A stretch of DNA of 64,000 nt from Thainema sp. (GTDB lineage: Bacteria > Cyanobacteriota > Cyanobacteriia > Phormidesmidales > Phormidesmidaceae). The position numbers and the translations under genes are program-made. Below are positions 21 through 25,578 of this stretch, piece after piece (the stretch's first letter is position 1; the number at the start of each line of letters is the position of its first letter). The notes below the pieces were generated by a model. The model had not been told where the DNA came from. It did no database searches and worked only from the letters and a program-made list of their open reading frames with translations. The stretch is from positions 66,827 to 130,826 of the forward strand of contig JBQLZK010000009.1 in the NCBI GenBank assembly GCA_052168235.1, in the 5' to 3' direction.

Positions 21-2580
21 GTTTCCATTAGTTCAACTTCCGAAGAAGTTCAAAGCATTCCGGAGGTTCTCACCTCCTCTATCCAAGGATGTTCGTTTCC
101 ATTAGTTCAACTTCCGAAGAAGTTCAAAGTGGCAACAGTTTGTGCTTTGAGTGTCGCATTTCAAGCGGTTTCCATTAGTTCAACTTCCGAAGAAGTTCAA
201 AGTTTAAACATTCAGGTGTTAAACTATGCACCTGATGTAGTTTCCATTAGTTCAACTTCCGAAGAAGTTCAAAGTTGTTTTTTGGCAGACCGTTACCGGA
301 GGCACTATGTTTCCATTAGTTCAACTTCCGAAGAAGTTCAAAGAGTGACCCTGCTAGGATCGCAGCATTCCTTCAAGGGTTTCCATTAGTTCAACTTCCG
401 AAGAAGTTCAAAGCGGATGGCGTCTGCCCCCCTGGAACGGATAGAGCCGTGGGTTTCCATTAGTTCAACTTCCGAAGAAGTTCAAAGTCTGGATTTTTCC
501 AGATATAAGGGTCGTCCTCGCCGTTTCCATTAGTTCAACTTCCGAAGAAGTTCAAAGCAGATGTATCATCGCTTTTGAAGGGTAACTACGGCTACCGTTT
601 CCATTAGTTCAACTTCCGAAGAAGTTCAAAGGAATCCGTTTGCAGAAGCAGCAGCTCAGCGCCGCGTGTTTCCATTAGTTCAACTTCCGAAGAAGTTCAA
701 AGACGCAACAGAATACTCCCCTTGGGGTGGCATGAGTGTTTCCATTAGTTCAACTTCCGAAGAAGTTCAAAGCCGACTTCCATCCAGAAGCACAAGATAT
801 GGTGCTGTTTCCATTAGTTCAACTTCCGAAGAAGTTCAAAGTCGTCCAGATATTGGTCAGTTTGGAGAGTGTAGTTTTCGTTTCCATTAGTTCAACTTCC
901 GAAGAAGTTCAAAGACGCAGTCACTCGATGGTTAGATATCCATGAGCAAAACCGTTTCCATTAGTTCAACTTCCGAAGAAGTTCAAAGTTGGGGCAATCT
1001 TCAGTGTGACACCTGAAGAAGAAAGCGTTTCCATTAGTTCAACTTCCGAAGAAGTTCAAAGAGCAAGTCTTACCCCTGGAAAATGGGAATCTACAGGTAG
1101 GTTTCCATTAGTTCAACTTCCGAAGAAGTTCAAAGCTTGAAGAATTTGTTGGAGAACCAGAAAATCCTTTCACAGTTTCCATTAGTTCAACTTCCGAAGA
1201 AGTTCAAAGTCGTAACTGCCTGGGAGGCTTGCGAAGGCTACATAGGTTTCCATTAGTTCAACTTCCGAAGAAGTTCAAAGTTTGTTTTTTGGTTTTCTGC
1301 TTCTTGTTTCTTCGCGAGTTTCCATTAGTTCAACTTCCGAAGAAGTTCAAAGGCGTCTGGTACCCGTTGACGGGCACCAAGAGTGGTTTCCATTAGTTCA
1401 ACTTCCGAAGAAGTTCAAAGTTTCGGCAAACGCTGCCGCCTGCCGAAAAGGCTGTAGTGTTTCCATTAGTTCAACTTCCGAAGAAGTTCAAAGTTGAGCT
1501 TGAAGTGTATCACTCTACTGATGGTACGGTTTCCATTAGTTCAACTTCCGAAGAAGTTCAAAGTGGCCAACTCACGGGAGCCGATCTGTGGTAACCCCGC
1601 AGACGGTTTCCATTAGTTCAACTTCCGAAGAAGTTCAAAGTCGCCAGATGGAGGTGTACGGTGTAGACGAGAATGGGAAGTTTCCATTAGTTCAACTTCC
1701 GAAGAAGTTCAAAGGGCTTGGGGACATCGAGAGATAACCATCCACACGGCGGTTTCCATTAGTTCAACTTCCGAAGAAGTTCAAAGTTTACGATACTTTC
1801 GTTAATTATGAAGGGGTTGAATTTAGGTTTCCATTAGTTCAACTTCCGAAGAAGTTCAAAGTGACAATTAAAACCTTCAGAGGTGTATGCATGCCCCTGT
1901 TTCCATTAGTTCAACTTCCGAAGAAGTTCAAAGCACATATCTTGTTCAAGTTGGTCGGGTAACGGCTGTTTCCATTAGTTCAACTTCCGAAGAAGTTCAA
2001 AGGCTCAAATTAACCCGGCCCCATCGCAAGGGCAATCCTCGTTTCCATTAGTTCAACTTCCGAAGAAGTTCAAAGAATCTATCAAGGTTCTGACTATGAT
2101 GGAGATGGTGAGCTAGGTTTCCATTAGTTCAACTTCCGAAGAAGTTCAAAGAATCTGGACGCGTTGATCGCGACCAGAACCCGCACGGTTTCCATTAGTT
2201 CAACTTCCGAAGAAGTTCAAAGTCTTGTTGAGACCGCCAACGACGGAGATTTCTCTGTTTCCATTAGTTCAACTTCCGAAGAAGTTCAAAGCCTCTGGTG
2301 AAGAATATTGGTATAGTGGTCAAAGCCAGGTTTCCATTAGTTCAACTTCCGAAGAAGTTCAAAGCCCAACTGGTATCGCTAACGCAGCTCTGCTACTAGC
2401 CAGGTTTCCATTAGTTCAACTTCCGAAGAAGTTCAAAGCAGGATATCTTGGAGGTGCTTCAGGTCAACGAAGGTTTCCATTAGTTCAACTTCCGAAGAAG
2501 TTCAAAGTGCTCTAGCTACATCAGCTGGTGCACAGCAGTCGTCTGGTTTCCATTAGTTCAACTTCCGAAGAAGTTCAAAG
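21..2580 (-). CRISPR. CRISPR array 1: 36 copies of a 35-nt repeat (+ strand GTTTCCATTAGTTCAACTTCCGAAGAAGTTCAAAG), 35 complete spacers; continues beyond the window start
   Basis: Repeats counted from 21 to 2546-2580. The reverse complement ends in ATGGAAAC and folds AACTTC-TTCG-GAAGTT. A non-coding leader lies to the right. Confidence 0.99.
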
Positions 2581-3066: not shown

Positions 3067-3891
3067 ATGGATTGGCTCCCCTGGCTCGATGTTGCCCACT
3101 CCCTCCACTGGCTCTCCCAAACACCTACGCCAACTCCACCCCCCAACCCCACTGCCACCGAACTCGAACTGCTCAGACAGCAAATCGACTTCCTCAAAGA
3201 AGCCAACGCCTCCCTTGATAAAAACTTTGAACGCTACGTCAACATGATGCAGCTCAGCATCGGCGTAGCAGGAGGAGTCATTCTGGCATTGGGAGCAGCG
3301 CTCTCTGTGAAAAACCTAAACGACTTTAACTCTGCCCTCAGAGGAATCAATAGCAAAGTGCGCGAAGCCGTCGATCAACGAATCGCCGTCGCCATCCGCA
3401 GTGAACGACAACGCCTGAATCGCCTCGAAGCCGTCCTCGATCGCGAAGACACCCCAGAGCGAATCACAATTGATTATGTTGTCCCTGCTCAAAAGTCACG
3501 GCAGCCAAAGAAAGAACTCAACATTTTGCTCAAAATCCTAGAAAACCGAGGCTTCGGAACCTTCTTAAAATATGAATCCGAATTTCAAGATCCAAACTCA
3601 ACCCAGCACAAATCCGAATTTGGAGCTGATGTTGTAGTTCTCGATCTCCACCACGCTGGTCTAGACAACAATACAGATAAGGATAAAGCCGAAGCGGTGA
3701 TCCGAGCCGTTGGAGCCAAACTGCGATCAACTGAGCCATCGGCACTAGTTGTTTATGGCAACGGTTACTTTGATGCCGTCACTCAGCTTAATCGAGATGA
3801 TAAGTACTGTGGCGCATCCAATACACCTCTAACCTTCGTCGCCAGAGTCCTAGAAGCAGCTTATGTCGTTGATGCAGTGAAGAGGTTGTAA
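3067..3891 (+). CDS. Membrane-anchored protein (coiled coil + TM + REC-like/Rossmannoid C-terminal domain); putative type III CRISPR effector (Cam2/NARF-like)
   Basis: Hydrophobic stretch LSIGVAGGVILALGAAL. C-terminal motifs NRGF, ADVVVLD, LVVY and ASNTPLTF..AAYV are shared with 16712..17545. Lies inside the CRISPR locus. Confidence 0.6.
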   Translation: MDWLPWLDVAHSLHWLSQTPTPTPPPNPTATELELLRQQIDFLKEANASLDKNFERYVNMMQLSIGVAGGVILALGAALSVKNLNDFNSALRGINSKVREAVDQRIAVAIRSERQRLNRLEAVLDREDTPERITIDYVVPAQKSRQPKKELNILLKILENRGFGTFLKYESEFQDPNSTQHKSEFGADVVVLDLHHAGLDNNTDKDKAEAVIRAVGAKLRSTEPSALVVYGNGYFDAVTQLNRDDKYCGASNTPLTFVARVLEAAYVVDAVKRL

Positions 3892-3894
3892 ACG

Positions 3895-3927
3895 CCCTCA
3901 CCCTAGCCCTCTCCCGCTAGGAGAGGG
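3895..3927. repeat. Short REP-like dispersed hairpin between convergent genes
   Basis: CCCTCACCCTAGCCCTCTCCCGCTAGGAGAGGG with a CCCTCTCC/GGAGAGGG stem. Confidence 0.55.
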
Positions 3928-3944
3928 AACAAGAAGCAAGTTGA

Positions 3945-4238
3945 TTACACCACCACATGTAGCTCTGGCCTAACCTGCCACGCATCAGGCCGATTACAAG
4001 CTTGAATTCGCTCCACGCAGCGGTTACACAAACCCACGAGCAGCAAACTATCCTCATTCGCCAAAATTTGCTCCAACTGCCAGCGTAGCAATTCGCGATC
4101 GCGCTGATTCAGCCGTATCCGAAAAATAGAATATTGCAGCGTCTCACCATAACCCTTCAGTAGCTTATGCGCCTTGCGCCAGCGCTTCGGATCGCGAATG
4201 TCGTAGCAAATCAAATAGTCGTGTTTCGGTTCCGCCAT
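3945..4238 (-). CDS. cas2: CRISPR-associated endoribonuclease Cas2
   Basis: YLICYDIRDPKRWRK and LQYSIF motifs, 97 aa, directly downstream of cas1. Confidence 0.97.
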   Translation of the reverse strand: MAEPKHDYLICYDIRDPKRWRKAHKLLKGYGETLQYSIFRIRLNQRDRELLRWQLEQILANEDSLLLVGLCNRCVERIQACNRPDAWQVRPELHVVV

Positions 4239-4257
4239 TAGTTCACCTCATTGCATC

Positions 4258-5919
4258 TCATCGCAACACCAGTTGAGCAAACAAGCCGCCTTCACCTAAC
4301 CATTCCTTCTCTAGCAGTCGCATTTCCAGCTCAATCAACCGCCGATAGGTCAGCGAATGCTTCACAATTGGGTGCTTCCAGGTGTCCTCCTTCCGCCGCT
4401 CATACAGATCAATCAGCTTGCGGCGACCCGCATCACTCAGCCACACCTGTTCATCGGTGATCTCAAAATCGGTTTCAGGATGCCACTGGTTGCGGTTAAT
4501 CGCCGCCACAATCGGCATATCCACCAGCGGCACTCGAAAGATCTCCATCAAGTCCAGCGCCAACGGCGACACCTGCCGCTGCGGCTGATGATAAAAGCCA
4601 ATGGCAGGCTCCAAGCCAACCGCCAAAATCGCATTCATCACATCCTTCAGCAATAGCGCATAGCCAAAGCCCAACATGGCATTGAAGCGATCCTTCGGTG
4701 GACGGCGGTTACGGCTAGCAAACTGAAATTCCGGTACCGCTGTCGGTGCTAACAAATGCGGCAACGCCTTGAAATACAAAGCCGCTAAGTTGCCTTCCAA
4801 TCCCAACAGCGACGCCAGCGAATCCGCCTGCGGAATCTGCTTCAATACCCGCTGCATCTGCTGAATCGCCTGCTCCAGTTCTAGATTTACCGTCCCCGCA
4901 TTGCGCTGACCCCGCATCAAAAACTTCCGCTGGCTCTGCCCCCGACAGATCACCAACTGTTGCGCCAAATTCAAACACAGCTCTGGCTTCGTCAACGCCT
5001 GATACTGTCGCAATCGTCGCTGAATCTGTCCCTGCCCAGCATTGAAACTGCCCAGATATCGTCCCCGACTGGAGACAAAATGCAACCCCACATTCCGCTC
5101 TGCACAAAAGTACATCGCCTGGGTCGAAATCTGCACGTAGCCGTGTAGCACCAACTGTCCCACCTGCCGAGACGGTAAGGCCATCTCACTGCCATCCCGC
5201 TTGGTGATCTTGAACTGCTCCCCGCTTTTGCCAATCACCGTTCCCGTCTCGGTGACATGCACAATCTGGCGCTCATCATCCACCGGAAACAACCACAGTG
5301 GCTTGCTTGTCTCTCCCTGAGCTAACCGTGTTGCGTTGGGCAAGCAAACATTCACGACCGAACAGCGATCGCACAAGTTTTCATTAGTCGCAATCGGTGG
5401 ACGCTCACTGGCAACCTGCAACCGCTGCACTTGCTCTAGTACCTCCTGCACGTCCCGTCGCGCTGCATCATCAAACGGTACATGTACCAACGCATTGTCG
5501 GCATGGTAGCGAATCCGACATTCTGGCACGGTGTAGCCCAATTCGGCTTCGATCAGACAGGCATAGGCTAAAACTTGAATGCGATCGCTCTCCCAGGCTT
5601 GCGGCTGGTTTTGCTCATCCCGATAGGATCGGCCTTTTTTGTGTTCGTAGGGAATCGCTTGTCCAGACTTTATCTTCAAAACATCAACTCTTCCTCTTAA
5701 GCCCAAATCGGCATTTTCTAGCACAAATTGCTGCCATTCATTGCCACCATCACGCTCTAGTTCGGTATGAAGCCGCAAGCCAGAATATACATCAGCGTTT
5801 GGAGTATGAACGCCTTCTACTTCTTGTAAATAGAACTGGCGTGGGCAATAAAGAAAAGCTTTGAGCGCACTAGCGTTGATAATCTCGTTCGATGAATGCA
5901 GAGTATCTAATGCTTTCAT
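4258..5919 (-). CDS. cas1: Cas4-Cas1 fusion (resembles MYXAN-type Cas1)
   Basis: N-terminal Cas4: YCPRQFY, GRVD..YEHKKG, CDRCSVVNVC (4 Cys). C-terminal Cas1: LLGLEG, RNRRPPKDRFNAML.FGY, GFYH, LALDLMEIFR. Confidence 0.95.
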   Translation of the reverse strand: MKALDTLHSSNEIINASALKAFLYCPRQFYLQEVEGVHTPNADVYSGLRLHTELERDGGNEWQQFVLENADLGLRGRVDVLKIKSGQAIPYEHKKGRSYRDEQNQPQAWESDRIQVLAYACLIEAELGYTVPECRIRYHADNALVHVPFDDAARRDVQEVLEQVQRLQVASERPPIATNENLCDRCSVVNVCLPNATRLAQGETSKPLWLFPVDDERQIVHVTETGTVIGKSGEQFKITKRDGSEMALPSRQVGQLVLHGYVQISTQAMYFCAERNVGLHFVSSRGRYLGSFNAGQGQIQRRLRQYQALTKPELCLNLAQQLVICRGQSQRKFLMRGQRNAGTVNLELEQAIQQMQRVLKQIPQADSLASLLGLEGNLAALYFKALPHLLAPTAVPEFQFASRNRRPPKDRFNAMLGFGYALLLKDVMNAILAVGLEPAIGFYHQPQRQVSPLALDLMEIFRVPLVDMPIVAAINRNQWHPETDFEITDEQVWLSDAGRRKLIDLYERRKEDTWKHPIVKHSLTYRRLIELEMRLLEKEWLGEGGLFAQLVLR

Positions 5920-6140
5920 GATTAATTCTCATAAAATCAAATCGCAAAGTACCAATTAATTCAGTACAAAAAGTTGCGATTTGCTTTACCTTCTATCTGT
6001 TCATTAACCCCAGAAAATCTGGCTCATGCCTGGGCAATCCTGCGGATCTTTTTTTGCGAATACATCTGTATTTCTTGGAAATCATCTAGATACAGTTGAT
6101 CTAACTAATGCATTTTGTTTTAATTTCAGGTTTCATTTCT

Positions 6141-6191
6141 AATAAAAATGGAAACTGAATTTTGGGTATCATCCAAAATTCAGTTTCCATT
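6141..6191 (-). terminator. 19-bp perfect hairpin plus T-rich tail at the trailer end of array 2
   Basis: AATGGAAACTGAATTTTGG (6147-6165) pairs with CCAAAATTCAGTTTCCATT (6173-6191), followed on the - strand by TTTATT. Confidence 0.7.
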
Positions 6192-8247
6192 AATTCGACT
6201 TCCGAAGAAGTTATTGGGCAGATGCGATCGCGATATTTGCTTTGACACCAGCGTGTTTCCATTAATTCGACTTCCGAAGAAGTCATTGGGCGTTCAAAAC
6301 CACAGCTACTTGTCCTCTGATGAGTTTCCATTAATTCGACTTCCGAAGAAGTCATTGGGAAGCATTAGTCAAGCTTGAAAATCTTGAACAGTCAGACGAA
6401 GTTTCCATTAATTCGACTTCCGAAGAAGTCATTGGGACGAGGCAATGGACTTAGCCCGACAACAGCGGGACAGCAATTCCAAGTTTCCATTAATTCGACT
6501 TCCGAAGAAGTCATTGGGCCGCAATACTATGTCACGGTCAGGCGCTACGGGCCCCAGTTTCCATTAATTCGACTTCCGAAGAAGTCATTGGGCGATCGCG
6601 CTTTCTTCAACTGGCTGCGGTTTCATTTTTGAGTTTCCATTAATTCGACTTCCGAAGAAGTCATTGGGCTGTCCCACCTGCTCCACCTGCTAATACTGCA
6701 ATCTTGGCAAGTTTCCATTAATTCGACTTCCGAAGAAGTCATTGGGGGATTTAAACAAAAACGCCCCGTTGTGAAACCGGGGGTTTCCATTAATTCGACT
6801 TCCGAAGAAGTCATTGGGTGGCGGCGGCGGCGGGCCATCGTTCTTTATCTGGCTGCGTTTCCATTAATTCGACTTCCGAAGAAGTCATTGGGCGCGCCAA
6901 AAACAAGAGCCGCCAGCAAGCGCAACGTGAGGTTTCCATTAATTCGACTTCCGAAGAAGTCATTGGGTAAATTGGCATATCTGGAAAAGGTAGATGTGGT
7001 TATCCCTACTGTTTCCATTAATTCGACTTCCGAAGAAGTCATTGGGGAAAGATCCTAATTCATGCGGCAAAGCGAGATTACGGTATGTTTCCATTAATTC
7101 GACTTCCGAAGAAGTCATTGGGACTGCTGAAGCTTTTAGGAGAATAACCATGTTCACCATCATGTTTCCATTAATTCGACTTCCGAAGAAGTCATTGGGT
7201 GGAATGAGCGTAGTGGCCTTATGCCAGTGCGGGGCAACTGTTTCCATTAATTCGACTTCCGAAGAAGTCATTGGGGGGCAACGCGGCGTTTATATGATTG
7301 TTCCTTTTGATTCAGTTTCCATTAATTCGACTTCCGAAGAAGTCATTGGGCAGCACCAGCCCACTTATCAGGCTTGAATTCGTTGTGAATCTCAAGTTTC
7401 CATTAATTCGACTTCCGAAGAAGTCATTGGGGAGGCTGGCAAAGCACTCATGAAGGAGTTCGGGTTGTTTCCATTAATTCGACTTCCGAAGAAGTCATTG
7501 GGTTTGTGCAACTGGGTGTGGAGTTCCACGAGATTGAGGGTGGGTTTCCATTAATTCGACTTCCGAAGAAGTCATTGGGTTTTCGTTAAACCCCTTGCAG
7601 AACATGCTGAAAGGTTTCCATTAATTCGACTTCCGAAGAAGTCATTGGGCCGACAAGGAGTAATATTGATGCGCAAGTATATTATTTTTCGGTTTCCATT
7701 AATTCGACTTCCGAAGAAGTCATTGGGGATCTGAGCTAAACCCGAAACCTAGCCCTTCGGGGGTTTCCATTAATTCGACTTCCGAAGAAGTCATTGGGGA
7801 ATTAACCCATGCTCAGCGGACTCGGCGACATGTACGCGTTTCCATTAATTCGACTTCCGAAGAAGTCATTGGGACAAATTCTTAAATCAGCTCAAATTAT
7901 GGAAATTGTTCGGTTTCCATTAATTCGACTTCCGAAGAAGTCATTGGGAGCAAGACGATATCCCATCAGCGAATATGAATGCGATCGCATGGGAGTTTCC
8001 ATTAATTCGACTTCCGAAGAAGTCATTGGGCCGCAAAATTATCTGGGCCTGGTAGACCTCCTCGGTTTCCATTAATTCGACTTCCGAAGAAGTCATTGGG
8101 TTGACGGAAATAACTCCTTAATTAAACTTCTATTCTGTTTCCATTAATTCGACTTCCGAAGAAGTCATTGGGATGCCCAGAATGGAAGCTGAAGTGCTGA
8201 AGGAGTATTACGTTTCCATTAATTCGACTTCCGAAGAAGTCATTGGG
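6183..8247 (-). CRISPR. CRISPR array 2: 28 copies of a 36-nt repeat (+ strand GTTTCCATTAATTCGACTTCCGAAGAAGTCATTGGG), 27 spacers
   Basis: Repeats counted from 6183 to 8212-8247. The leftmost copy has one mismatch (trailer end), which agrees with a leader on the right. Confidence 0.99.
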
Positions 8248-8640
8248 AGCGGAATCTAGATTCTCCATCCCATCTGCATTCTATAGCAACTTCTCAAGGT
8301 GGACTCAAGCATTGTCAATAAAGTAGCCTTATTTACAATACCAGCACCCGCAAAACGATTGAAACTCCTATTCCACAAGCAATTCAAGGTGGATGACAGC
8401 ACCATCATTGATCCAGCAATCCCCCAAAGGTGCTTGCATCCAGCATCTTACGTCCCACAAATCGCGATTTCTGCACAGCCACTCCATAACACACAAAGGT
8501 GCTTGCATGGACAACGTAACAAACTTTTTGACCTAGCCAAAGAAAATCTGAAGCTTTCTCGCCATCACCAAATAGAGCGAATAATTTGGAAAAACATGTC
8601 CGGAAACAGCCAATCCCAGGCTGAAGACCCCAAAAGACGA
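8248..8640 (-). promoter_or_regulatory. Leader of array 2 / divergent promoter region for the cmr operon
   Basis: Gap between the array and cas10. TCTAGA palindrome and TCTRCATTCTA sit at the same offsets as in the array 1 leader. Confidence 0.7.
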
Positions 8641-8658
8641 AATCGTTGAGGTTCGAGT

Positions 8659-13109
<4,451 letters not shown>

Positions 13110-13114
13110 TTTAA

Positions 13115-14092
13115 ATGACCAACTATCTGACTTATCTTTACTTGTTGACCCCCTTGCATACGGGAGGAAGCTCTAATGAAGGCAACCTAATGGGGATTGC
13201 CAGGGAAGTTCATACAGAGTTTCCCTATATGCCTGCATCTTCTGTACGGGGGCGAATTCGGGCCGCAGTAGAGCAGAAGCATCGGGATGAAAATGATCCA
13301 CTCAAAAAATATGTCCAAGCCTTTTTCGGCCACAAAATCGAAGGCGGAGGTCAGCCGACAGAGGGTGAAGTTTGGTTCGCCGATGCCACATTACTGTTCT
13401 TTCCTATCGCGTCACTGAGTCACCATCTAGTATGGGTTACTTGCCCACTCTGGCTTGAACGGTGGAGTCGATGGCTAGGCGAAGATAGTGAAAACATTCA
13501 AAAGCTAGCTAATACTTGCCGCACGAAGCTTTCAGATTTAGAAGACCAGGAAGGTAAATCTGCGATCACATCCAAAGCGGAACCTTTGTATTTGCAAACG
13601 GCTTTACTGAAACCAAATGACATTGACACTTCGGTTTCCTTTGAGAACCTGATGAAGCAAGTCAAAGCGGTCTTGGGAGAGGGGCAATTGATCAGCCAGC
13701 TCAAACAACGACTTATTGTGTTGAGTGACCAAGACTGCATTGCTCTCGTTGAGATGGGTCTTCAACGAGAAGTGAGAGTCGCCTTGAAAGAAGATCAGAA
13801 AGTTGTCCATGGAGGGTCATTTCGTTCCGAGGAAGCCATTCCACCAGAGGCCGTTCTCTTTTTTCCCTGGGCACCGAAGACAATGGATTCATTCAAGCCG
13901 AAACCAGGGATGAAACCTGAAGAGATATCAGCAGCCCAAGCAGAGCATGAAGCTAGGATTGGAAACCACGACAAAGTCAAAGACTCGTTAGTTGAGATTT
14001 TGAGCAACCGTCTTCAATTCGGAGGATTAGAAGGACTCGGTCGTGGTTGGGCAGAACTCAGCACAGAGGAGGGCGATACAAATGACAATTGA
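13115..14092 (+). CDS. cmr4: Cmr4 (Cas7-group RAMP)
   Basis: LLTPLHTGG..IAREVHTEFPYMPASSVRG, ADATLLFFP and QFGGLEGLGRG motifs. Confidence 0.95.
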   Translation: MTNYLTYLYLLTPLHTGGSSNEGNLMGIAREVHTEFPYMPASSVRGRIRAAVEQKHRDENDPLKKYVQAFFGHKIEGGGQPTEGEVWFADATLLFFPIASLSHHLVWVTCPLWLERWSRWLGEDSENIQKLANTCRTKLSDLEDQEGKSAITSKAEPLYLQTALLKPNDIDTSVSFENLMKQVKAVLGEGQLISQLKQRLIVLSDQDCIALVEMGLQREVRVALKEDQKVVHGGSFRSEEAIPPEAVLFFPWAPKTMDSFKPKPGMKPEEISAAQAEHEARIGNHDKVKDSLVEILSNRLQFGGLEGLGRGWAELSTEEGDTNDN

Positions 14093-14576
14093 CAACCGAG
14101 AATTTAGCCAGCAAGCCTACAAAGCGCTGAATGATTTGAAATGCCGACTAAATGACCTTGCTGAGGCGGTTCTCATAGAAGAGCTGAAAAAAAAGAAACG
14201 GCGTCCTTCTTCGCAAGAAATTAGTGAGCGAGCAGAGTCTTACTTCAAAAAGTCTAGTGGTTTAGTACAAGGACTCTCAACATACATAGCGACTTGGGGA
14301 CTCCATCGACTGACTGGGGATGCCAAGAAGTTTTCTCTCGGCACAGCATCAGATACGCAATACAAAGGTTCAGTATATGGGCTATTTTTAGAGCGGCTAA
14401 AGCACCTTAGCGGCGCAGATTTTGTTGTCTGGAGTGATGGGAAAGACGGCAAGGATGAAAAAACATTAGTCAATCTTGATCTCCGGGAATACACAGCTCT
14501 AAATCGATTGGCGATCAAATTGGCTAAAGAGTGGGGATTTTGGGCTGCAGCTGTTCTCGGCGAGGCAGAAGAATAA
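14082..14576 (+). CDS. cmr5: Cmr5 small subunit (Cas11)
   Basis: Small helical protein between cmr4 and cmr6; GLSTYIATWGL motif; ATG 14082 with GAGGAGG upstream. Confidence 0.75.
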   Translation: MTIDNREFSQQAYKALNDLKCRLNDLAEAVLIEELKKKKRRPSSQEISERAESYFKKSSGLVQGLSTYIATWGLHRLTGDAKKFSLGTASDTQYKGSVYGLFLERLKHLSGADFVVWSDGKDGKDEKTLVNLDLREYTALNRLAIKLAKEWGFWAAAVLGEAEE

Positions 14577-14578
14577 CA

Positions 14579-16618
14579 ATGGTGAACGGTAGAAACAGGA
14601 CAACACTTCAGGATTTGGCTTTTCTTAAAGACCAGTTGCCTGCAGAGAACAAGCAAGTCAAAAAGAAACCTAAGAAGAAGCAGACGAGTAAGTGGCCGAA
14701 ACCTGGTAGTAAGATACCGCTACAGGTTCTGCAGTTTGACGATCTTGAGATTTTAGATGTCCAAAATCAGGCTCAATACAGACAGCTATTTGATTGGCAA
14801 GAAATATTATCGAGCCTTCTATCAATCCAAACTTTTAAAAATCGAGTTCAACAAGTAGACTCTCTGATTAAGGATGAGCAGCCTAAGAGAGAACGTTCTA
14901 ACCGAAAAACAGAATTTGAAAAGATACTCGTCCGTATTAATGACGATCATCATAGTTTAAGCAACGAAATTCATCGCATGAGGATCCACAAGGAAATCCT
15001 CACCCTCGAAGACCAACGAATTCGTAAAGTCCTAACCAATTCCGTACACGCAGACAGCGATATTTGGCAGCCACTCTATGATGAACTTAATCAGCGAGTA
15101 AGGTTACTCGCCTGCGAAGTCGATACCAAAACCGGAGAACGGAAAAAAGCTATCGTCACAGTTCAGTATCCATGGCGAGTGCGTGTGGGCGGACTGCCGG
15201 GCTTTCGAGAGCGCCTGTTACCTGCAATGCACCCTGTATACGGTATTCCCTACGTACCAGCCAGCACCATTAAAGGCATCTTACGAGCATGGGCTGTTGA
15301 AAGTGGTCAAGATCATACTCAGATCAAACATCTGTTGGGTTTTCTAGAAGGCTCTAAAGCCGCCATGGCAGCAGTCGAAATCCTAGATGCCTTCCCGGAA
15401 CAGCCATCTCTCAGCGTAGATGTAGCGACTCCTCAGTGGTCGTGGCAAGGGGATAACGTCTCCTATGGCCCCAGCCCCCATCAGATGCTATCGCTTGAGA
15501 ACTTAAGCCTAAATATTGGTTTGACTTACACAAGCTATGGCAACGAGGCAGATGTAAAAGCTGTCATGGGCTGGCTAGAGCAAGCACTTCGCATCAAGGG
15601 ATTAGGCTCTCGTGTTAGTGCTGGCTATGGTCAAGCTACGCAGGTAAACAATACTGCGCCAAGTCCAGAGGCAACCTCCTGTAGAAAGATCTATCCCTTT
15701 AAGTTCTGGTCACAGGGAATGTATGGTGCAACTCCACCTGCACCTGACAATGGATACAACGGCGTCATGGAGTTTCGTACGTCTTCTATTCGTGGGGTAC
15801 TGCGTTACTGGTTCCGGGCGATCGCCCTAGGATTTTATTCATCCCAAACATGTAAGACTTTAGAGCAAGAAATATTTGGATCAATTGACCCTAAACCCGT
15901 TGCAGGCAAACTGCAAATTAAAGTTTGTCTGAAAGATGAAGTTCTGGATGGGAATCCTCACTATGCAGCAGGAGATATTTTTTTAGAATCTCAGAACACT
16001 CATTGTTTGGTCCTGATGGGCAAAGTACTGGAACTCGCCGTTCATTTGGGGGGAGTGGGGCGAGGCAGCCGACGACCACTGCACTGGAACGATGGTATGC
16101 GTGGATGTTACTGGCAGCTAGAGTCACCAGCAACTCTTCCCTGTGATTATCAGCAATGGCAAAACTTATTAAATGGCTCTAGTCACAACAGCATCAGAAA
16201 CCTGTTCCAATCTCTACATCCTTTTGGAACAATCGGTACTGGAGATCCTGGAACACCTGGGCAACGACAACAGGATGTACTCAATCAGAATTGTCGGATT
16301 TATTTGGTCGAGGCACCTAATCTCAAACATCCGCAAGTAGTTGGGAGTTGGGAAGCTGAGGGCAAAAATTCTGAAGTGCGCGGGCCAGCACTCAAATTGC
16401 TTTACTCTAACCAAAACTTCAAAGGTGGTAAACCTCCCAATGGCAAGCCAACTGTTGGTGGCAAATTGGGTACTCCCTCGTATGTCACGATTCAATCAAA
16501 TTTTCCTATCAGCAAGAATCCTTATCAAGCTGTCACTATTTTTGGTGCAAATCATCATGATCGTCAGACCTTTGAAAACAAGCTAGCAAGGCTCAATGGT
16601 GCTCAGCGAATTAGGTAG
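14579..16618 (+). CDS. cmr6: Cmr6-Cmr1 fusion RAMP protein
   Basis: Cmr6 half: HPVYGIPYVPASTIKG..GLGSRVSAGYG. Cmr1 half: FRTSSIRGVLRYWFRA..LGGVGRGSRR. Confidence 0.88.
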   Translation: MVNGRNRTTLQDLAFLKDQLPAENKQVKKKPKKKQTSKWPKPGSKIPLQVLQFDDLEILDVQNQAQYRQLFDWQEILSSLLSIQTFKNRVQQVDSLIKDEQPKRERSNRKTEFEKILVRINDDHHSLSNEIHRMRIHKEILTLEDQRIRKVLTNSVHADSDIWQPLYDELNQRVRLLACEVDTKTGERKKAIVTVQYPWRVRVGGLPGFRERLLPAMHPVYGIPYVPASTIKGILRAWAVESGQDHTQIKHLLGFLEGSKAAMAAVEILDAFPEQPSLSVDVATPQWSWQGDNVSYGPSPHQMLSLENLSLNIGLTYTSYGNEADVKAVMGWLEQALRIKGLGSRVSAGYGQATQVNNTAPSPEATSCRKIYPFKFWSQGMYGATPPAPDNGYNGVMEFRTSSIRGVLRYWFRAIALGFYSSQTCKTLEQEIFGSIDPKPVAGKLQIKVCLKDEVLDGNPHYAAGDIFLESQNTHCLVLMGKVLELAVHLGGVGRGSRRPLHWNDGMRGCYWQLESPATLPCDYQQWQNLLNGSSHNSIRNLFQSLHPFGTIGTGDPGTPGQRQQDVLNQNCRIYLVEAPNLKHPQVVGSWEAEGKNSEVRGPALKLLYSNQNFKGGKPPNGKPTVGGKLGTPSYVTIQSNFPISKNPYQAVTIFGANHHDRQTFENKLARLNGAQRIR

Positions 16619-16711
16619 CAACAAAATTCGATATTCCAGAGGCCCTATATGAATGAGAGCATCATAAGAAAAACACCTCAAAATCAACACTTTGACAGAT
16701 ATATATGAGCC

Positions 16712-17545
16712 ATGAGAATAAAGAATGAATCCTCTATGTTTGAATGGGTCAAATGGGCGATGTTTATTTTAGCGATCGCAGTCTCGATTGCCATAATTAG
16801 CTGGGCATTGAACTTATCGGCCATACTCACAAAGGTTTTGAACTTGCCTCCGAACAGTGATCCGCTAGCGCAAACGGACTCAGAGGTTCTAGCTAGCCAG
16901 CTAGAATTTATTTTGACGATGAACAGCGTCTTTCTGGGATTCCTTGGCATTATTGGGACATTATTAACCTGGTTCTTCAAGAACAGTCTTGAGGATGCTA
17001 AAGAAGTTGCAGGCAAGATGGTGCGAAGCGAACTAGATAAGCACATTCAAAAACGTATTCAGGATGAATTTCGTCATTGGGAGATGAGTGCTCGAACTGA
17101 GCGTGTAGTTAGCCAAACCTTAGTCAATTATTATCTGCCTGACGGTATAGAAGAACCCCGCGAGTTTTCATTAGTTAAAAATCGCGGCTTTCGGCATGTC
17201 TTATTTTGTAGCCGATTAGAGGAGGTTAGACGTTCATCTGCTGATGTAGTTATTTTAGATGTTCAAAATTGGACAACAGAATCAGGTCAGAGTGTTGTTC
17301 AGACTGAAAAAGGAAAACTGATTGACGAAAGCGAACAGCAAGTCAAACAGCAAATTGATTCTTTGAGAAAAATGATCTCAGATCATGTTGTTTTAGTCGT
17401 CTACGTTCGTGGAACTGTTAACTACCTTTATGATCCCCAATTTGCCGCCGAGTTTGTACTGGCAGCTAATAACCATGTAACGCTGTTAGGTCATGCGGTA
17501 AACGGAGCTTATGTGGCCTACGGCGATCGCATAGCAAATCGCTAG
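16712..17545 (+). CDS. Two-TM protein with REC-like/Rossmannoid C-terminal domain; putative type III effector, paralog of 3067..3891
   Basis: Two hydrophobic helices; NRGF, ADVVILD, LVVY and AANNHVTL..GAYV motifs; follows cmr6-cmr1. Confidence 0.6.
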   Translation: MRIKNESSMFEWVKWAMFILAIAVSIAIISWALNLSAILTKVLNLPPNSDPLAQTDSEVLASQLEFILTMNSVFLGFLGIIGTLLTWFFKNSLEDAKEVAGKMVRSELDKHIQKRIQDEFRHWEMSARTERVVSQTLVNYYLPDGIEEPREFSLVKNRGFRHVLFCSRLEEVRRSSADVVILDVQNWTTESGQSVVQTEKGKLIDESEQQVKQQIDSLRKMISDHVVLVVYVRGTVNYLYDPQFAAEFVLAANNHVTLLGHAVNGAYVAYGDRIANR

Positions 17546-17549
17546 TTTT

Positions 17550-18617
17550 ATGGGAGCAGGATCAGGTTCGTTGGAGATTAACATGAAGGCAATTCACTCC
17601 TGGTACTTTGTCAGCGAACTTGCCCTAGAAGACTTTGTTTGTGCCAACCTATGGCCGTTACTACGGCTACAACCCCTAGCACGGCAGTACGCTATCGATG
17701 GCCAAATCTGCGATATCCTCGCCCTCAGCCCCCAGCAGCAACTCGTCATCATCGAACTGAAAAATGTCGAAGACCGCTACGTCATCCCCCAACTCACCCG
17801 CTATTACGCCAGTCTCGCAAAAGCACAACCCTTTGCCGATCACGTTGATTACAGCCAACTCATCCGTTTACTTGCGATCGCACCCAGCTTTCATGTCCAT
17901 AACCTAATTGACCGAGACTACAGCCAACTTAACTTTGACTGTCTCACCTTTCAGGTAACCAAAACCGACCGTCAAGAGCTGATGCTGACCTTAACAGACT
18001 TGGATCAGAATTTGATCGGTGAAGTTGCGATCGCGCCGCTCTATCGCCGCTATCTTCAGGCAGAAGATAAAGAAATTGAACCCGAACCCATTCGCCAAAT
18101 CGGGCCACCACCCAAATCACTCCGAAAACTGCTCGATACACTCCCGCCCGAACAGCAACAAGAGTGGTTAACGGTGCGAGAGCAAATCCTAAATTTTGAC
18201 GAGCGGATTGCCGAAGTAGGCCGCAGCACCACAACCCAATATGGTCTGAGAAAAGGAAATACCGAGGTCTACAAAACAAAGCTCTGTGCAGAGATTCTAA
18301 CTAAAGGGACATCCCAGCCCCACTTGATGCTGCGCCTTCCCTATCCCAAACGCGAGTTTGGTGCTCCAGGTCGAACTTACAAGAAGCAACGGGTTTTGGG
18401 ATTTACATGGGCCACTGTGCCACTGCCCTATCAATTTCAACATGGGTGGCAAGTATCTTACCACTTGGGCAAATCTCGACTTAGCGCCAGTTTCACACTA
18501 CAACCATCTCAACTAGCACTCATGCATCAGCAACTGACTGGTCAAATCCGTCAAGTCACATCTACGCAGGATATCGTTGAGCTAGCCCTCGAACAGTGGG
18601 TTCAGCAGTTTTTATAA
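17550..18617 (+). CDS. PD-(D/E)XK nuclease, NucS/EndoMS-like catalytic domain with a C-terminal extension
   Basis: E.ALEDFV, CDILA..LVIIELK and QLTRY motifs. The start may be 17583. Confidence 0.75.
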   Translation: MGAGSGSLEINMKAIHSWYFVSELALEDFVCANLWPLLRLQPLARQYAIDGQICDILALSPQQQLVIIELKNVEDRYVIPQLTRYYASLAKAQPFADHVDYSQLIRLLAIAPSFHVHNLIDRDYSQLNFDCLTFQVTKTDRQELMLTLTDLDQNLIGEVAIAPLYRRYLQAEDKEIEPEPIRQIGPPPKSLRKLLDTLPPEQQQEWLTVREQILNFDERIAEVGRSTTTQYGLRKGNTEVYKTKLCAEILTKGTSQPHLMLRLPYPKREFGAPGRTYKKQRVLGFTWATVPLPYQFQHGWQVSYHLGKSRLSASFTLQPSQLALMHQQLTGQIRQVTSTQDIVELALEQWVQQFL

Positions 18618-19657: not shown

Positions 19658-20074
19658 TTAGGCCGCGATCGCGTCGCTATCCTCCAGTGCCGCTTCGTAC
19701 AGCTCAATGAACTGTGGCTTCGTCAGCGACTTGCCATGACGGGTAGCTGGAATGTTAAAAGTCTTGCGAAGACGGGCCTTCTTCAAATCACGGATGTCCC
19801 ACTTTGACCAATCAATAGCCACGATCTCAGGCTTACGGTAAGGACGTTGAAACGGGACGACCGCGTCCTCAATGATTGGCCGATGATGCGCGTCCATCTG
19901 TGCGAGTTCCGCCTCGATATCAATGTCAAGATCCGGAACCATCGTTCCACTGTTGGCACTGCAAATGTGGCGATCACGCTCATACTGCCCAAAGCCCCTC
20001 ACAAACACAGTTGCAAAAAACGCAAAACATGAAATGGTGAACGCTTCGATTGCGAACGTAAAAACGGATTGCAT
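19658..20074 (-). CDS. Hypothetical protein with an N-terminal hydrophobic segment and a basic HeH/Rho-N-like C-terminus
   Basis: WDIRDLKKARLRKTFNIP..LTKPQFIELY. The domain call is tentative. Confidence 0.55.
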   Translation of the reverse strand: MQSVFTFAIEAFTISCFAFFATVFVRGFGQYERDRHICSANSGTMVPDLDIDIEAELAQMDAHHRPIIEDAVVPFQRPYRKPEIVAIDWSKWDIRDLKKARLRKTFNIPATRHGKSLTKPQFIELYEAALEDSDAIAA

Positions 20075-20254
20075 TGTAAATACCTAGATAACAACATGCC
20101 CTTGAAACGGTGGGCAAAGAATCAGCAAACCTTGAAGTGACAACTCGCGCGTTGATTACAACGGGCGTGAAGCGTTCCCCAGATAGTTCCAACTCTCATT
20201 CGTCGGTAACGCTCTGTGCCCTTGGATCTGATATCTCATTTATCTGGTACTATT

Positions 20255-20313
20255 TTACAGATATCTGTAAGGATATGTCAACAGATATCTGTAAAAAAAC
20301 GACAGGTATCTGT
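20255..20313. promoter_or_regulatory. Three palindromic operators ACAG(A/G)TATCTGT between divergent genes
   Basis: Cores at 20257-20268, 20281-20292 and 20302-20313; the first extends to TTACAGATATCTGTAA. Confidence 0.8.
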
Positions 20314-20345
20314 GGGTTTCCCCTATTAACATCAACGTTCTCGAT

Positions 20346-20558
20346 ATGAGAGTGAAAAGTAATCTTCCTGTATTAATGGCTCAGCATGAGCCGCCCCTAA
20401 ACCAAGCTGATGTTGCGAGGCAAGCTAAAGTCAGCCCCACCACCATCAATCAGCTCTATAACGACAAATTGCAGCGATTAGATAGAAAGCTGTGCAAGAG
20501 TCTATACGATGCATTCGGATGGACACCCGGTGATATTTGGATCGTCGTACCCGATTGA
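20346..20558 (+). CDS. XRE/Cro-C1 family HTH regulator
   Basis: LNQADVARQAKVSPTTINQLYN HTH and C-terminal TPGDI, 70 aa. Confidence 0.88.
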   Translation: MRVKSNLPVLMAQHEPPLNQADVARQAKVSPTTINQLYNDKLQRLDRKLCKSLYDAFGWTPGDIWIVVPD

Positions 20559-20634
20559 TTCTTTCATCTGCGATCGCAACTGGATGCACAGAACAGCACA
20601 CGTTTTATGTCCCCACTCACCATTCCGGCTGCGA

Positions 20635-20684
20635 CTTCATTCGTGTCACTTAAATGGACGACTAAATAAGTGACACGAATGAAG
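20635..20684. repeat. Dispersed site 1: ATTCGTGT-N26-ACACGAAT (18-bp perfect arms in this copy)
   Basis: CTTCATTCGTGTCACTTA / TAAGTGACACGAATGAAG. Confidence 0.9.
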
Positions 20685-20841
20685 CCGCGAAAACCGGGAC
20701 CTGCCACTGCTCATCTGCAACGGTATGGCTCCATCAACACTTTCAGGAAACGTTATCCAACGTCCCAAACGGGACACCTAAAACAACAAGGATTTTAGCT
20801 ACACTGCGGGGATAACAGTCACGAGTCCATTGAGGATTGGC

Positions 20842-21260
20842 ATGAGCATTCGCCCATTTCATCTAGCATTTCCGGTCAACGATTTAGCGGCGACTCGCCA
20901 CTTCTATGAGACCGTTCTCGGCTGCACGATTGGCAGAACGGCTGACACCTGGATTGACTTTAATCTATTTGGGCATCAGGTCACAGCCCATTTAAGCCCA
21001 TCTCATGCGGCAACAATGCCGACCAATGATGTTGATGGCAAACCAGTTCCGGTACAGCATCGGGGCGTCATTTTAGAGATGCCACAATGACAGAGGTGGG
21101 CCAAGCAACTTCAACAGCACGGAATCGACTTCATTATTGAGCCTCATATTCGCTTTAAGGGAGAAGTCGGAGAACAAGCCACCATGTTTTTCTTGGATGT
21201 CAACGGACATGCACTGGAGTTCAAAGCCTTTCAACAGGATGAAGCTATCTTTGCGGTGAC
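20842..21260 (+). pseudogene. VOC/glyoxalase family gene with an in-frame TGA at 21088-21090
   Basis: PFHLAFPVNDL..WIDFNLFGHQ; the frame continues after the stop as [28 protein letters not shown]. Confidence 0.85.
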
Positions 21261-21297
21261 ATCACATCAACATCACATCAATAGGTCATTGATAGCG

Positions 21298-21711
21298 CTA
21301 GGGTTGGCCATACATCACCCCGTCCTTAAATCCCTGATATTCAGAATTCAGCCGCTCGTATTCCAGCGCTTGCTGTTCTGCCGTCCATTTTGCCCGTTCT
21401 TGCTGGAGCAGTGCATCTACCTCAGATTGGGTTAGGGTTGGCTCCTGCTGCTTGGGTTTCAATGCCTGAATAAGCAGAAGCAGGGCTACGAAAAAGCAGG
21501 TTGCTGCGATCGCAGCTCTCACCGCATCCCAGTTGATGCCAGATTGAGGCACGGTAAACACTCCGACCTGTTCATGGGGCTCCTCCACCAGTTCTGCTTG
21601 AACTGGCTGTGACTGTCGCACCAGCGGTTGCGCTGCAACAACTGGACTAGAGGTGGGTAACTGTCGCTGTTGGTCGTGGGGGAGATTGATGTTGATACTG
21701 ATTGGGTTCAT
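21298..21711 (-). CDS. Single-TM protein with a C-terminal coiled coil (FtsK operon)
   Basis: [16 protein letters not shown] helix; GAGG before ATG. Confidence 0.7.
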
Positions 21712-21776
21712 AATAACCTCGTCTCTTGATTGGAGATGAGGCAGGGGGACTTTTGCGGGTTCCCCTGCCTGCTAAT

Positions 21777-22151
21777 TCAGTGATTGACAGCGGCCAGCCA
21801 CATGCCAGCCAGAAGTGCCGGAATGAGCAAGAGAGCCGAATAGATGCTCATGCCAACTGCGATCGCACATCCGACCGGAATGATCGCAACCAGCAGTCCG
21901 TAGAACAACGTTCGACCGACGAACCGGAGCCGCTCGTCGAGTCGAACAATGGCCACGTATTCCCCCAAGTATCGGCTCATCGCTTCATCGCTGGCTTGGG
22001 CGAGGCAAAAGCCTTTGTAGTTCCGATCGAGCCGCTGTGAGTAGCTGGATTCAGCCACATCAAATTGAAGGTCGGCGAGGTGTTGGCCAATTGCGATCGC
22101 AAGAGTTGGATCGAACTCATCCGGGATGTGCTCGATGTCTTCAGGCTTCAT
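21777..22151 (-). CDS. Small membrane protein with two C-terminal TM helices (FtsK operon)
   Basis: Hydrophobic C-terminus; ATG 22151 with GAGG, overlapping the upstream stop. Confidence 0.65.
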   Translation of the reverse strand: MKPEDIEHIPDEFDPTLAIAIGQHLADLQFDVAESSYSQRLDRNYKGFCLAQASDEAMSRYLGEYVAIVRLDERLRFVGRTLFYGLLVAIIPVGCAIAVGMSIYSALLLIPALLAGMWLAAVNH

Positions 22152-22536
22152 CGGCCTCGTCCTCATGGGGTGTAATGTAGGCCGAGCGGATACTGCCCGC
22201 TTTGACTGCCATGCCATTGAAGAGCGATGCCATCATGTAGTTCGTTCGCTTGACGAGTTGCTGACCGCGCTCCTTGAATCGCTTCTCCATGCCATGCTCA
22301 GCCGCATCAAAGGCCGCATCGACGAGTTCAGTTCCGCCTTGAACCAGTTGGGCCGGTTCAAACTGTTCAACATCGACGTTCACATTGGGATTTTCAGTTT
22401 GAACGGCGGGTGGACGATAGGGTTTGGATTGTGTTTTGCCGCGCGCCACCTTGTCGCTTGATGCAGTACTGACTGAACGAGCTAAGCCTATTTGTGTTTC
22501 TGTGGTTTGTTCGGAATTAGTAGGTTTGTTGGTCAT
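22141..22536 (-). CDS. Hypothetical protein (FtsK operon)
   Basis: Tightly packed ORF on the operon strand. Confidence 0.6.
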   Translation of the reverse strand: MTNKPTNSEQTTETQIGLARSVSTASSDKVARGKTQSKPYRPPAVQTENPNVNVDVEQFEPAQLVQGGTELVDAAFDAAEHGMEKRFKERGQQLVKRTNYMMASLFNGMAVKAGSIRSAYITPHEDEADEA

Positions 22537-22548
22537 GACTGAAATCCC

Positions 22549-22971
22549 CTATGCAACAGTACTTTGAACATTAATCGTGTCCTGCTGAATGCGCCGTTGA
22601 TTTTGGCGCATGAGCATCTCTTCAATGCCAACATTGCAGTCTGCTTCTGAACCACCGGCTAGTGCAACAACCGCCCAAATTTCTGCATCAGTTTGGTGAT
22701 TGATGAACTCAATGATTTCGCTTTCAGGAATTTGATGTCTCCCTTTTGCATACTGCAAATGGCGATAAAGCGTGACGCAGTAAATAGTTTTCACTTCGGC
22801 TCGGGAGAGAGAAGCCCGATAGGCTCGCTCACCCCACAAGATTTTGGTGTCACGACTGATCTGATAGAGGGGTGCGCCCAACATATCTGCCACATCCTGT
22901 TTCGGAAATTGTGCGATCGCATCAACGATTTGAGGAACACGAGTGGTTGCTGGGCGTTTACGAATTGGCAT
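22549..22971 (-). CDS. Hypothetical protein, possibly HTH DNA-binding (FtsK operon)
   Basis: KQDVADMLGAPLYQISRD is HTH-like; ATG 22971 has GGAG upstream. Confidence 0.6.
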   Translation of the reverse strand: MPIRKRPATTRVPQIVDAIAQFPKQDVADMLGAPLYQISRDTKILWGERAYRASLSRAEVKTIYCVTLYRHLQYAKGRHQIPESEIIEFINHQTDAEIWAVVALAGGSEADCNVGIEEMLMRQNQRRIQQDTINVQSTVA

Positions 22972-23178
22972 GTCATGCAGTCTCCATAAGGGTTTTGCAA
23001 GATGGGGGTTAAAAGACCGTCGAGTTGCAGCATTTGCAAAACTTGTATGCATTAGCAGCACGTCAACCCCCGGTGTTGCAAGTTAGAACAATTCTGATAA
23101 AGCCTGTATCAGTTACAGGAGCTGAATTGCAGCACTGAATTTGCAACCTGCGGGTTGCAAGTGCAACCTTTTACGCCA

Positions 23179-25032: not shown

Positions 25033-25568
25033 TGGTTTAAGTACGCTTGCCAGGCAGCGTCATAGGCTTTTTCAGAATTGGACTGCTGCGATTCGACCGG
25101 AGTTTGCTGCTGAGCTTTGGGCTGTCGAGCATTGAAGAACACTCGAAACAGACCTGCACTGAGCACAAACCCAATCGCAACGATGAAGAATTTCCAGATG
25201 GGACTGCCTTGGTAGTAAAACAGGCCCAGAAGTAGATCCCAACTGGCCAAAAGCGTCGCAATAATGACGCCAAAGGCTGTTATCCCGACCAATGTGAATA
25301 AGTTGGGATGACCCGCGATCGCAACATAGAAACAGGCCAAAAGACCAGCCCCGGCAAGGATTCCGTAGATAAAAGCGAAGTCAGGCAAGAGCCGAGCCAG
25401 GAACGTGAGAAACATCCAACTGCCCACCAGCAAACCGAACATTGAACCCGCTCGGTTGATGGTGTGGAAGTTCCAAGTTGGGACTTCAGGATGAGGAGCG
25501 ACTGCGATCGCAGATTCTTGCAGTGCTCGCAGCCGCTCTAGTTCAGGGTTGTGTTGCTGTGTGTACAT
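24999..25568 (-). CDS. Integral membrane protein, about 4 TM (FtsK operon)
   Basis: Four hydrophobic helices; ATG 25568 with GGAG. Confidence 0.75.
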   Translation of the reverse strand: MYTQQHNPELERLRALQESAIAVAPHPEVPTWNFHTINRAGSMFGLLVGSWMFLTFLARLLPDFAFIYGILAGAGLLACFYVAIAGHPNLFTLVGITAFGVIIATLLASWDLLLGLFYYQGSPIWKFFIVAIGFVLSAGLFRVFFNARQPKAQQQTPVESQQSNSEKAYDAAWQAYLNQWTSQSTDNLS

Positions 25569-25578
25569 AAGCAACTCC

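Follow-up and report, generated by a model that had tools for sequence, protein, structure and literature searches.

Organization of the locus

The DNA analyzed here, referred to as the window, is a stretch of 64,000 nt from Thainema sp. (assembly GCA_052168235.1, contig JBQLZK010000009.1, positions 66,827–130,826 of the forward strand) that contains a type III CRISPR-Cas locus. Two open reading frames (ORFs) of this locus encode membrane proteins, termed protA and protB, which are the subject of this report. The gene of protA (274 aa) is located on the plus strand at 3067..3891, between CRISPR array 1 and cas2/cas4-cas1, and was assigned from the ORF listing and family profiles. The gene of protB (277 aa) is located at 16712..17545, 93 nt past the fused cmr6-cmr1 gene (cmr6/1) and on the same strand (plus). 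The analysis established the genes present, the homology and conservation of the two proteins, their predicted fold and topology, and the genes with which they are associated in genomes.

Array 1 (21..2580, plus strand) contributes 36 identical 35-nt repeats to the window (36 occurrences in a pattern search versus 0 expected). Downstream of protA, cas2 (3945..4238; PF09827, E 3.5e-18) and a cas4-cas1 fusion (4258..5919; PF01867, E 3.9e-90; PF01930, E 9.5e-20) are encoded on the minus strand. Array 2, read from the sequence at 6183..8247 (plus strand), has 36-nt repeats, which are like those of array 1 over the first ~29 nt but have another 3' end. Repeats of the window type span positions 55636–75038 of contig C9 in the genome of origin (G000), so the array region reaches ~11 kb upstream of the window. 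This region (also L079:16212-16752; L denotes the fetched loci) includes a third repeat variant with the end ...GTTTAGAG, and the locus holds at least three repeat types with different 3' ends.

The effector genes follow on the plus strand. These are cas10/cmr2 (8659..11916; Cmr2_N, E 8.4e-32; palm2, E 3.3e-16; PADLOC Cas10b, 1226.7 bits), cmr3 (11913..13109; PF09700, E 3.7e-49), cmr4 (13115..14092; TIGR02580, E 2.7e-37), cmr5 (14043..14576; PADLOC Cmr5, E 4.6e-15) and the cmr6-cmr1 fusion of 695 aa (14531..16618). The fusion is matched by TIGR01898 (E 2.6e-10, residues 232–369), TIGR01894 (E 8.7e-8, residues 406–452) and PADLOC Cmr6 (E 1.9e-31). The Cmr set of cmr2, cmr3, cmr4, cmr5, cmr6 and cmr1 is therefore complete, as identified with Pfam, NCBIfam and PADLOC. 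Most likely, protB and cmr2-6/1 form one transcript. Scans for promoters and terminators around protA and protB gave counts not above those of shuffled sequences.

No cas6 was found in the locus, and the only two Cas6 matches of the genome are on contigs C55 and C33. This agrees with the III-Bv type, and the locus is accordingly classed as a III-Bv-like variant of type III-B that has no Cas6. Assignment to a type III-B variant had been made in the original prediction, a reading of the sequence alone, and it is upheld by the cmr set, the lack of cas6 and the properties of Cas10.

Cas10 and other possible effectors

The N-terminal region of the window Cas10 has KLYALLQLP in place of the HD dyad, and the motifs GDGDGMG and SGGDDVM are present. 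This agrees with the earlier reading of LYALLQ at the HD site and of retained DGD and GGDD motifs. All six Cas10 orthologs with a recovered N-terminus lack the HD dyad (LLQL, FLQS, FLRS, FLHA), and GGDD is kept in 8/8 orthologs. An 830-aa Cas10 of another type III subtype, which adjoins relatives of protB in two loci (L006, L009), likewise has no N-terminal HD and keeps GGDD. Judged by these motifs, the cyclase palm of the window Cas10 is preserved, whereas its HD nuclease dyad is lost.

Among the ORFs tested in 1..23 kb, no model of Pfam, NCBIfam or PADLOC for CARF, SAVED, HEPN, NucC or a ring nuclease gave a match, and the same holds for CorA in the locus. HisKA and HATPase models matched none of the window ORFs tested, and the locus encodes no histidine kinase. 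protA has a weak match to PADLOC Mem_04 (E 0.029), a model annotated as 'could be a CARF domain diverged beyond r...'. A SAVED search of the own genome gave no match, but the control genomes gave none either.

A gene for a NERD and UvrD-like helicase protein (639 aa) is located outside the window at L079:12451-14367 (G000:C9:52450-54366), ~1.3 kb upstream of the arrays. It matches PADLOC C3a187, another type III accessory cluster, with E 4.5e-95, and no second fetched locus was found to carry it. The proposal that protA and protB are the only apparent effectors, with CARF/HEPN proteins, NucC and ring nucleases lacking, accordingly holds within the window and has to be qualified for this accessory gene just upstream of the arrays.

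protA and protB are paralogs of a catalogued family

The ordered motifs that were first noticed in the two ORFs recur in the pairwise alignment of protA and protB, namely ENRGF/KNRGF, ADVVVLD/ADVVILD, ALVVY/VLVVY and GASNTPLTF..AAYV/AANNHVTLL..GAYV. BLASTP aligns the proteins over the whole length (32.7 bits, E 5e-6) with 64/293 identities (~22%). Profile-profile alignment (hhalign) of families of 22 and 19 sequences yields a probability of 98.4% (E 5.7e-15, 203 columns). Homolog searches collected 67 proteins for protB and 26 for protA, and those with a name are all from filamentous cyanobacteria. A maximum-likelihood tree (69 rows) separates an A from a B clade with 100/100 support. Since the profile alignment and the two separate homolog sets argue that the paralogy is real and old, protA and protB are, on the level of sequence, true and old paralogs.

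A profile search of 1.84 billion representatives retrieved 180 clusters at E <= 0.001, 139 of them at E <= 1e-10. No fused forms were seen among the clusters listed, in which the lengths are ~60–345 aa.

No model of Pfam or NCBIfam matches protA or protB. Two PADLOC models match both: Mem_02 (PDLC01156; 'Membrane protein (2TM) with a globular domain') with E 3.1e-72 for protB and 1.6e-30 for protA, and C3a55 (PDLC01054) with E 3.2e-37 and 3.6e-26, respectively. The family is thus already catalogued and not new; C3a55 corresponds to cluster 55 of Shah et al. 2018.

Topology, predicted fold and conserved residues

According to hydropathy, protA has one transmembrane (TM) segment (~60–84) and protB has two (~12–40 and ~66–90). 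The last TM helix is followed by a stretch rich in Lys and Arg, so by the positive-inside rule the globular domain should be cytoplasmic. AlphaFold2 models based on the family alignments have a mean predicted local distance difference test score (pLDDT) of 86.3 for protB and 74.0 for protA, whose C-terminal domain scores >90. Both models show a long continuous stalk helix that connects the membrane part to a (beta-alpha)5 domain at the C-terminus (residues 134–273 in protA). The best structural matches of this domain in the predicted protB model are receiver (REC) domains. In a Foldseek search of the PDB, the protB model matched nothing at E <= 0.001; the top match is a GH3 glucosidase (E 1.7e-3), followed by flavodoxin-like and REC rows. 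Searched by sequence with either profile, solved structures gave no match at E <= 10. The description of protA and protB as diverged paralogs with a TM part and a REC-like part is consistent with the profile alignment, the hydropathy and these structural matches.

Conservation was calculated from 99 sequences (97 of 149 representatives with 230–320 aa and the two window proteins; protB numbering). The most conserved residues are D183 (98%), E130 and Y140 (both 96%), R158 (94%), F160 and N253 (both 93%) and Y231 (89%). D183, Y231, N253 and the RGF motif are common to the A and B clades, and a Gly within the last TM helix is invariant in both. In the protB model, D183, Y231 and N253 are located at the C-terminal ends of beta-3, beta-4 and beta-5, respectively. 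The C-terminal strand ends are the usual ligand side of the (beta-alpha)5 fold. The three residues may line one candidate pocket.

The Pfam model Saf_2TM, a SAVED-fused 2TM effector domain, has a weak match in 2/42 family members (best E 0.03). The TM hairpin may resemble an effector module of cyclic oligonucleotide-based antiphage signaling systems (CBASS).

Genomic contexts of the B clade

For the B clade, 34 loci from species-representative genomes were fetched, all of them cyanobacterial. Twenty-seven were examined, 20 of these by Pfam scans; the other seven are short contigs searched with tblastn only (L008, L018, L019, L030, L032, L033, L034). In seven loci, cmr genes like those of the window are located directly upstream of the family gene (L001, L002, L003, L012, L017, L021, L031). 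Seven more have a RAMP gene and/or Cas10 of another type III subtype within ~7 kb (L005, L006, L009, L011, L022, L027, L028). Type III genes therefore adjoin the family gene in 14/27 loci, and other cas genes do so in five more, where only Cas6 or a reverse transcriptase–Cas1 fusion (RT-Cas1)/Cas2 is present (L010, L015, L016, L023, L024). One locus has only a TIR protein (L029). Homologs lying mostly outside type III loci would have spoken against the original prediction; the relatives mostly adjoin type III or other CRISPR genes. In the tree, cmr-linked members and those linked to another type III subtype are intermixed, which indicates that the gene moves between type III subtypes.

Some neighbors recur in these loci. 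TIR proteins of 418–422 aa are encoded near B-clade genes at L011:6168-7433 (also with a SAVED match), L022:6555-7820 and L029:3297-4550. A STAND/AAA ATPase of ~471–477 aa is found just upstream of B-clade genes in loci of the RT-Cas1 type (L015:8480-9892, L023:3118-4548, L009:258-1670, L039:9665-11083). Genes of the Uma2 family ('putative restriction endonuclease') are near the family gene in L005, L006, L009, L011, L013, L024, L027, L029, L039, L067 and L079. This proximity may merely reflect the abundance of Uma2 genes in cyanobacteria.

The A clade and the number of copies

Among 401 genomes sampled from the class, only five have strong matches to the A clade, namely the own genome and four more. 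In 4/4 of these other genomes, the context is CRISPR-linked. The complete genome G190, which belongs to another genus, shows an array, protA, ~5 kb of toxin-antitoxin (TA) type genes and then protB-cmr6/1-cmr5-cmr4-cmr3-cas10 on the other strand. The layout with two copies thus recurs in another genus. A third copy of G190 is located between a second cmr-like cassette and cas1-cas2. In G253, the A-clade gene is found directly downstream of cmr6/1, which is the slot of protB in the window, and a B-type copy is on another contig. In G335 and G261, the A-clade gene has an array and either cas1/cas2 or a cas4 fragment next to it; the two copies of G261 are on different contigs. In total, three copies are present in G000 and G190, two in G261 and G253 and one in G335 (88% complete). 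A B-clade gene is also present in four of the five genomes that have an A-clade gene.

The third copy of the own genome is encoded at C33:75095-75883 (L039:17063-17893) and matches Mem_02 with E 4.2e-66 and C3a55 with E 1.7e-61. It is part of a second CRISPR locus (L039, G000:C33:58000-76557) with RT-Cas1, Cas2 and an HTH-STAND ATPase. A matching type III cassette, which is of the other subtype, is on contig C118. This second locus further contains two genes of the 23S_rRNA_IVP family, a Cas1 fragment, a HEPN/nucleotidyltransferase pair and long arrays of a different repeat.

Further genes and features near the locus

The gene directly downstream of protB (17550..18617, plus strand, 4 nt past protB) encodes a NucS_C-like protein of the PD-(D/E)XK type (355 aa). 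Its nearest neighbors are large cyanobacterial NucS_C clusters. A role as co-effector was set aside since the gene is downstream of protB in no other fetched locus (tblastn); the sole tblastn match elsewhere is ~6 kb upstream of the family gene in L016.

Downstream of the locus (19658..26253), a run of minus-strand ORFs has no family matches and is accompanied by an FtsK/SpoIIIE-like protein at 23179..25032. This stretch may be a mobile element. Tandem repeats with periods of 126, 23 and 60 nt at 57989..58311 and 31293..31736 are unrelated to the CRISPR arrays.

Proposed mechanism

A model of the Cam2 style is the best fit for the locus, since an HD-less Cas10 of the cyclase type and a conserved membrane protein behind the cmr genes coincide with the lack of any other recognizable messenger-responsive effector. 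We consider it reasonably probable (about 60%) that the HD-less Cas10 signals to two Cam2-like membrane proteins of the Mem_02/C3a55 family as defense output, and that these act as separate homo-oligomers. Binding of the target RNA would switch on Cas10, which would then synthesize a nucleotide messenger, most likely cyclic oligoadenylate (cOA). The messenger would occupy the candidate pocket formed by D183, Y231 and N253 at the C-terminal sheet edge of the cytoplasmic REC-like domain. The resulting change would be relayed via the long stalk helix to the glycine-rich TM helices of a homo-oligomer. The membrane would be permeabilized or depolarized and the infected cell would stop growing. A cyclic oligonucleotide is favored over S-adenosylmethionine-AMP (SAM-AMP) as messenger because SAVED proteins are neighbors in some loci. 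SAM-AMP has so far been tied to CorA (PMC13294483).

Messenger synthesis and identity, ligand binding, oligomerization and the membrane effect are what we infer. Several observations weigh against this mechanism. The term REC-like is a statement on the level of the predicted fold only. PF00072 matches neither protA nor protB at E <= 0.1 and is absent from the 25 listed of the 40 families matched by 42 members. Alignment to a three-sequence REC profile (hhalign) has a probability of 0.9%, so that the comparison with REC suggested in the original prediction yields no membership by sequence. This weak alignment places ADVVILD on the strand that ends in the phospho-acceptor Asp, and D183 aligns with that Asp. 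The fold matches of protA are mixed (REC, B12-binding, SDR, TIR). The likeness to Cam2 is one of published architecture. No cas gene is nearby in 7/27 B-clade loci (L004, L007, L013, L014, L020, L025, L026); in four of these (L007, L020, L025, L026) the family gene is <1 kb from the contig end. For G335 and G261, no cmr cassette is present in the ~11–19 kb fetched on each side of the A-clade gene, and such contexts would be compatible, too, with a function connected to arrays or adaptation.

Alternative explanations

The two paralogs could be different sensors, each homo-oligomer answering another messenger or threshold (e.g. cOA ring sizes) and thereby opening its own output channel. This is consistent with the deep, fully supported split at ~22% identity, with the different number of TM segments (one versus two) and locus positions, with the two-copy layout kept in G190 and with the joint presence of A- and B-clade genes in four of five genomes. 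However, the top conserved residues D183, Y231, N253 and RGF are common to both clades, which argues for the same ligand chemistry, and an A-clade gene alone fills the slot of protB in G253. We regard different sensors as unlikely. Equally doubtful is the more general idea that the A and B clades are non-redundant, either as a heteromeric messenger-gated channel or as readers of different Cas10 products. One HD-less Cmr complex would then have two membrane outputs via a nucleotide receptor that is REC-like and has no relation to CARF and SAVED, with the one-TM A clade tied to the array and adaptation side.

Alternatively, the proteins might sense no messenger and instead tether or organize the Cmr or adaptation machinery at the membrane. 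Anchoring has been proposed for uncharacterized membrane protein families linked to type III systems (Shmakov et al. 2018, preprint), and the A-clade genes of G335 and G261 beside arrays and cas1-cas2 would suit such a role. A tether, on the other hand, would not need the conserved polar candidate pocket that the model places at the usual ligand site of the fold. Furthermore, the Cas10 partners are HD-less with GGDD kept and the locus has no other effector. The movement of B-clade genes between type III subtypes is more easily reconciled with a diffusible signal than with a specific contact between proteins. A tether is improbable in our view.

The original prediction had also considered a hetero-oligomer of the paralogs. 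An obligate hetero-oligomeric channel of protA and protB would agree with their presence in one locus both here and in G190, with a stalk and TM2 region common to both by homology and with the B-clade genes in four of the five A-clade genomes. However, the fetched flanks of all 34 B-clade loci lack an A-clade gene, and the matches of protA there are weak cross-matches on the B gene itself. In addition, the A-clade gene of G253 stands alone after cmr6/1 with the B-type copy on another contig, and the copies of G261 are on different contigs as well. This form of assembly is disfavored and very unlikely.

The lowest probability is assigned to autonomous membrane toxins or abortive-infection genes of defense islands, or pseudo-receivers controlled by phosphorylation, that hitch-hike near CRISPR loci: the seven loci without cas genes, the frequent Uma2, TA and insertion sequence (IS) neighbors and the 98% conserved Asp at the phospho-acceptor position are in line with it, whereas the cas genes beside the family gene in 19 of 27 loci (type III effector genes in 14, other cas genes in five), the lack of a histidine kinase in the window locus, the variable position of the REC acidic pair and the invariant Asn at the REC Lys site (the last two judged by position) oppose it.

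Most likely, protA and protB are separate homo-oligomeric effectors. Cam2-type proteins would constitute a third kind of nucleotide receptor in CRISPR signaling beside CARF and SAVED. The locus is a clean natural test case: Cas10 would be limited to signaling because the HD dyad is lost and GGDD is kept, the locus has no other effector known to respond to a messenger, and the candidate is located directly behind cmr6/1. Experiments are narrowed by the clade split, by the near-invariant residues (D183, Y231, N253, R158-G-F160) and by the finding that the gene moves between III-B and another type III subtype. Should the family bind no Cas10 product, the HD-less systems would be left without a known output beyond RNA cleavage, which would itself need an explanation.

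Comparison with known systems

A close counterpart of the locus is the III-Bv system CRISPR3 of Synechocystis, in which Cmr has no associated Cas6 and maturation of the CRISPR RNA (crRNA) depends on RNase E and RNase J (PMC12464536). Both are cyanobacterial Cmr systems without cas6 in the locus.

The C-terminal domains of protA and protB share with receivers (PF00072) the five-stranded (beta-alpha)5 fold and an Asp at the end of beta-3, which is 98% conserved and aligns with the phospho-acceptor. They differ from receivers in the lack of a significant sequence match and of a kinase in the locus. Furthermore, the positions of the acidic pair and the Lys appear not to be kept. Judged by the alignment and the strands of the model, the site after beta-1 (acidic pair) is variable and the Lys site is an invariant Asn.

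The original prediction had compared the architecture with Cam2 and NARF. For NARF (PF20299, 112 positions), neither this comparison nor membership by sequence was confirmed. The model matches neither protA nor protB (E <= 0.1), nor any part of the six-frame translation of the genome (E <= 1), and is absent from the 25 listed of the 40 families. Weak language-model neighbors (0.79–0.81) come from clusters with NARF on 12% and 30% of the members. In the literature searched, NARF was not found together with CRISPR/CARF or Rossmann/transmembrane.

Cam1, Csx23 and the CRISPR-associated CorA are described as messenger-gated type III membrane effectors that combine a small TM module with a cytoplasmic sensor. 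The sensor is a CARF domain in Cam1 and a unique domain in Csx23 and in CorA. By analogy, protA and protB are proposed to join a TM module to a cytoplasmic sensor for the Cas10 product and to disturb the membrane. The sensor folds of these effectors are different, and they have no sequence relation to protA and protB.

The part of the original comparison that stands is the one with Cam2. Cam2 has TM helices and a REC-like domain and was reported from 26 type III loci of complete genomes, of which one adjoins NucC and two adjoin SAVED-CHAT (Hoikkala et al. 2024, PMC11229360). Activation by cyclic triadenylate (cA3) was predicted and a trimer was modeled in that study. protA and protB match the published architecture with an N-terminal TM region and a REC-like C-terminal domain, a type III locus and no partner histidine kinase. 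The mechanism preferred here is the one already proposed for Cam2 (PMC11229360). No experimental study of Cam2 was found in the literature searched. The family is thus catalogued and experimentally untouched, and the proposed function, although reasonable, has been put forward before.

Cluster 55 in the table of type III accessory genes by Shah et al. 2018 has seven members with Nos7107_2836 as representative. It is assigned there to subtypes B and D, as found here, and labeled 'ABC permease'. No ABC or permease match of Pfam occurs in protA, protB or the families listed for 42 members. A division into two deep clades, or the presence of more than one copy in a locus or genome, is not mentioned in the available parts of that publication. 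New in this report are the deep split into two clades, the recurring two-copy layout, the candidate pocket residues and the third copy in a second CRISPR locus.

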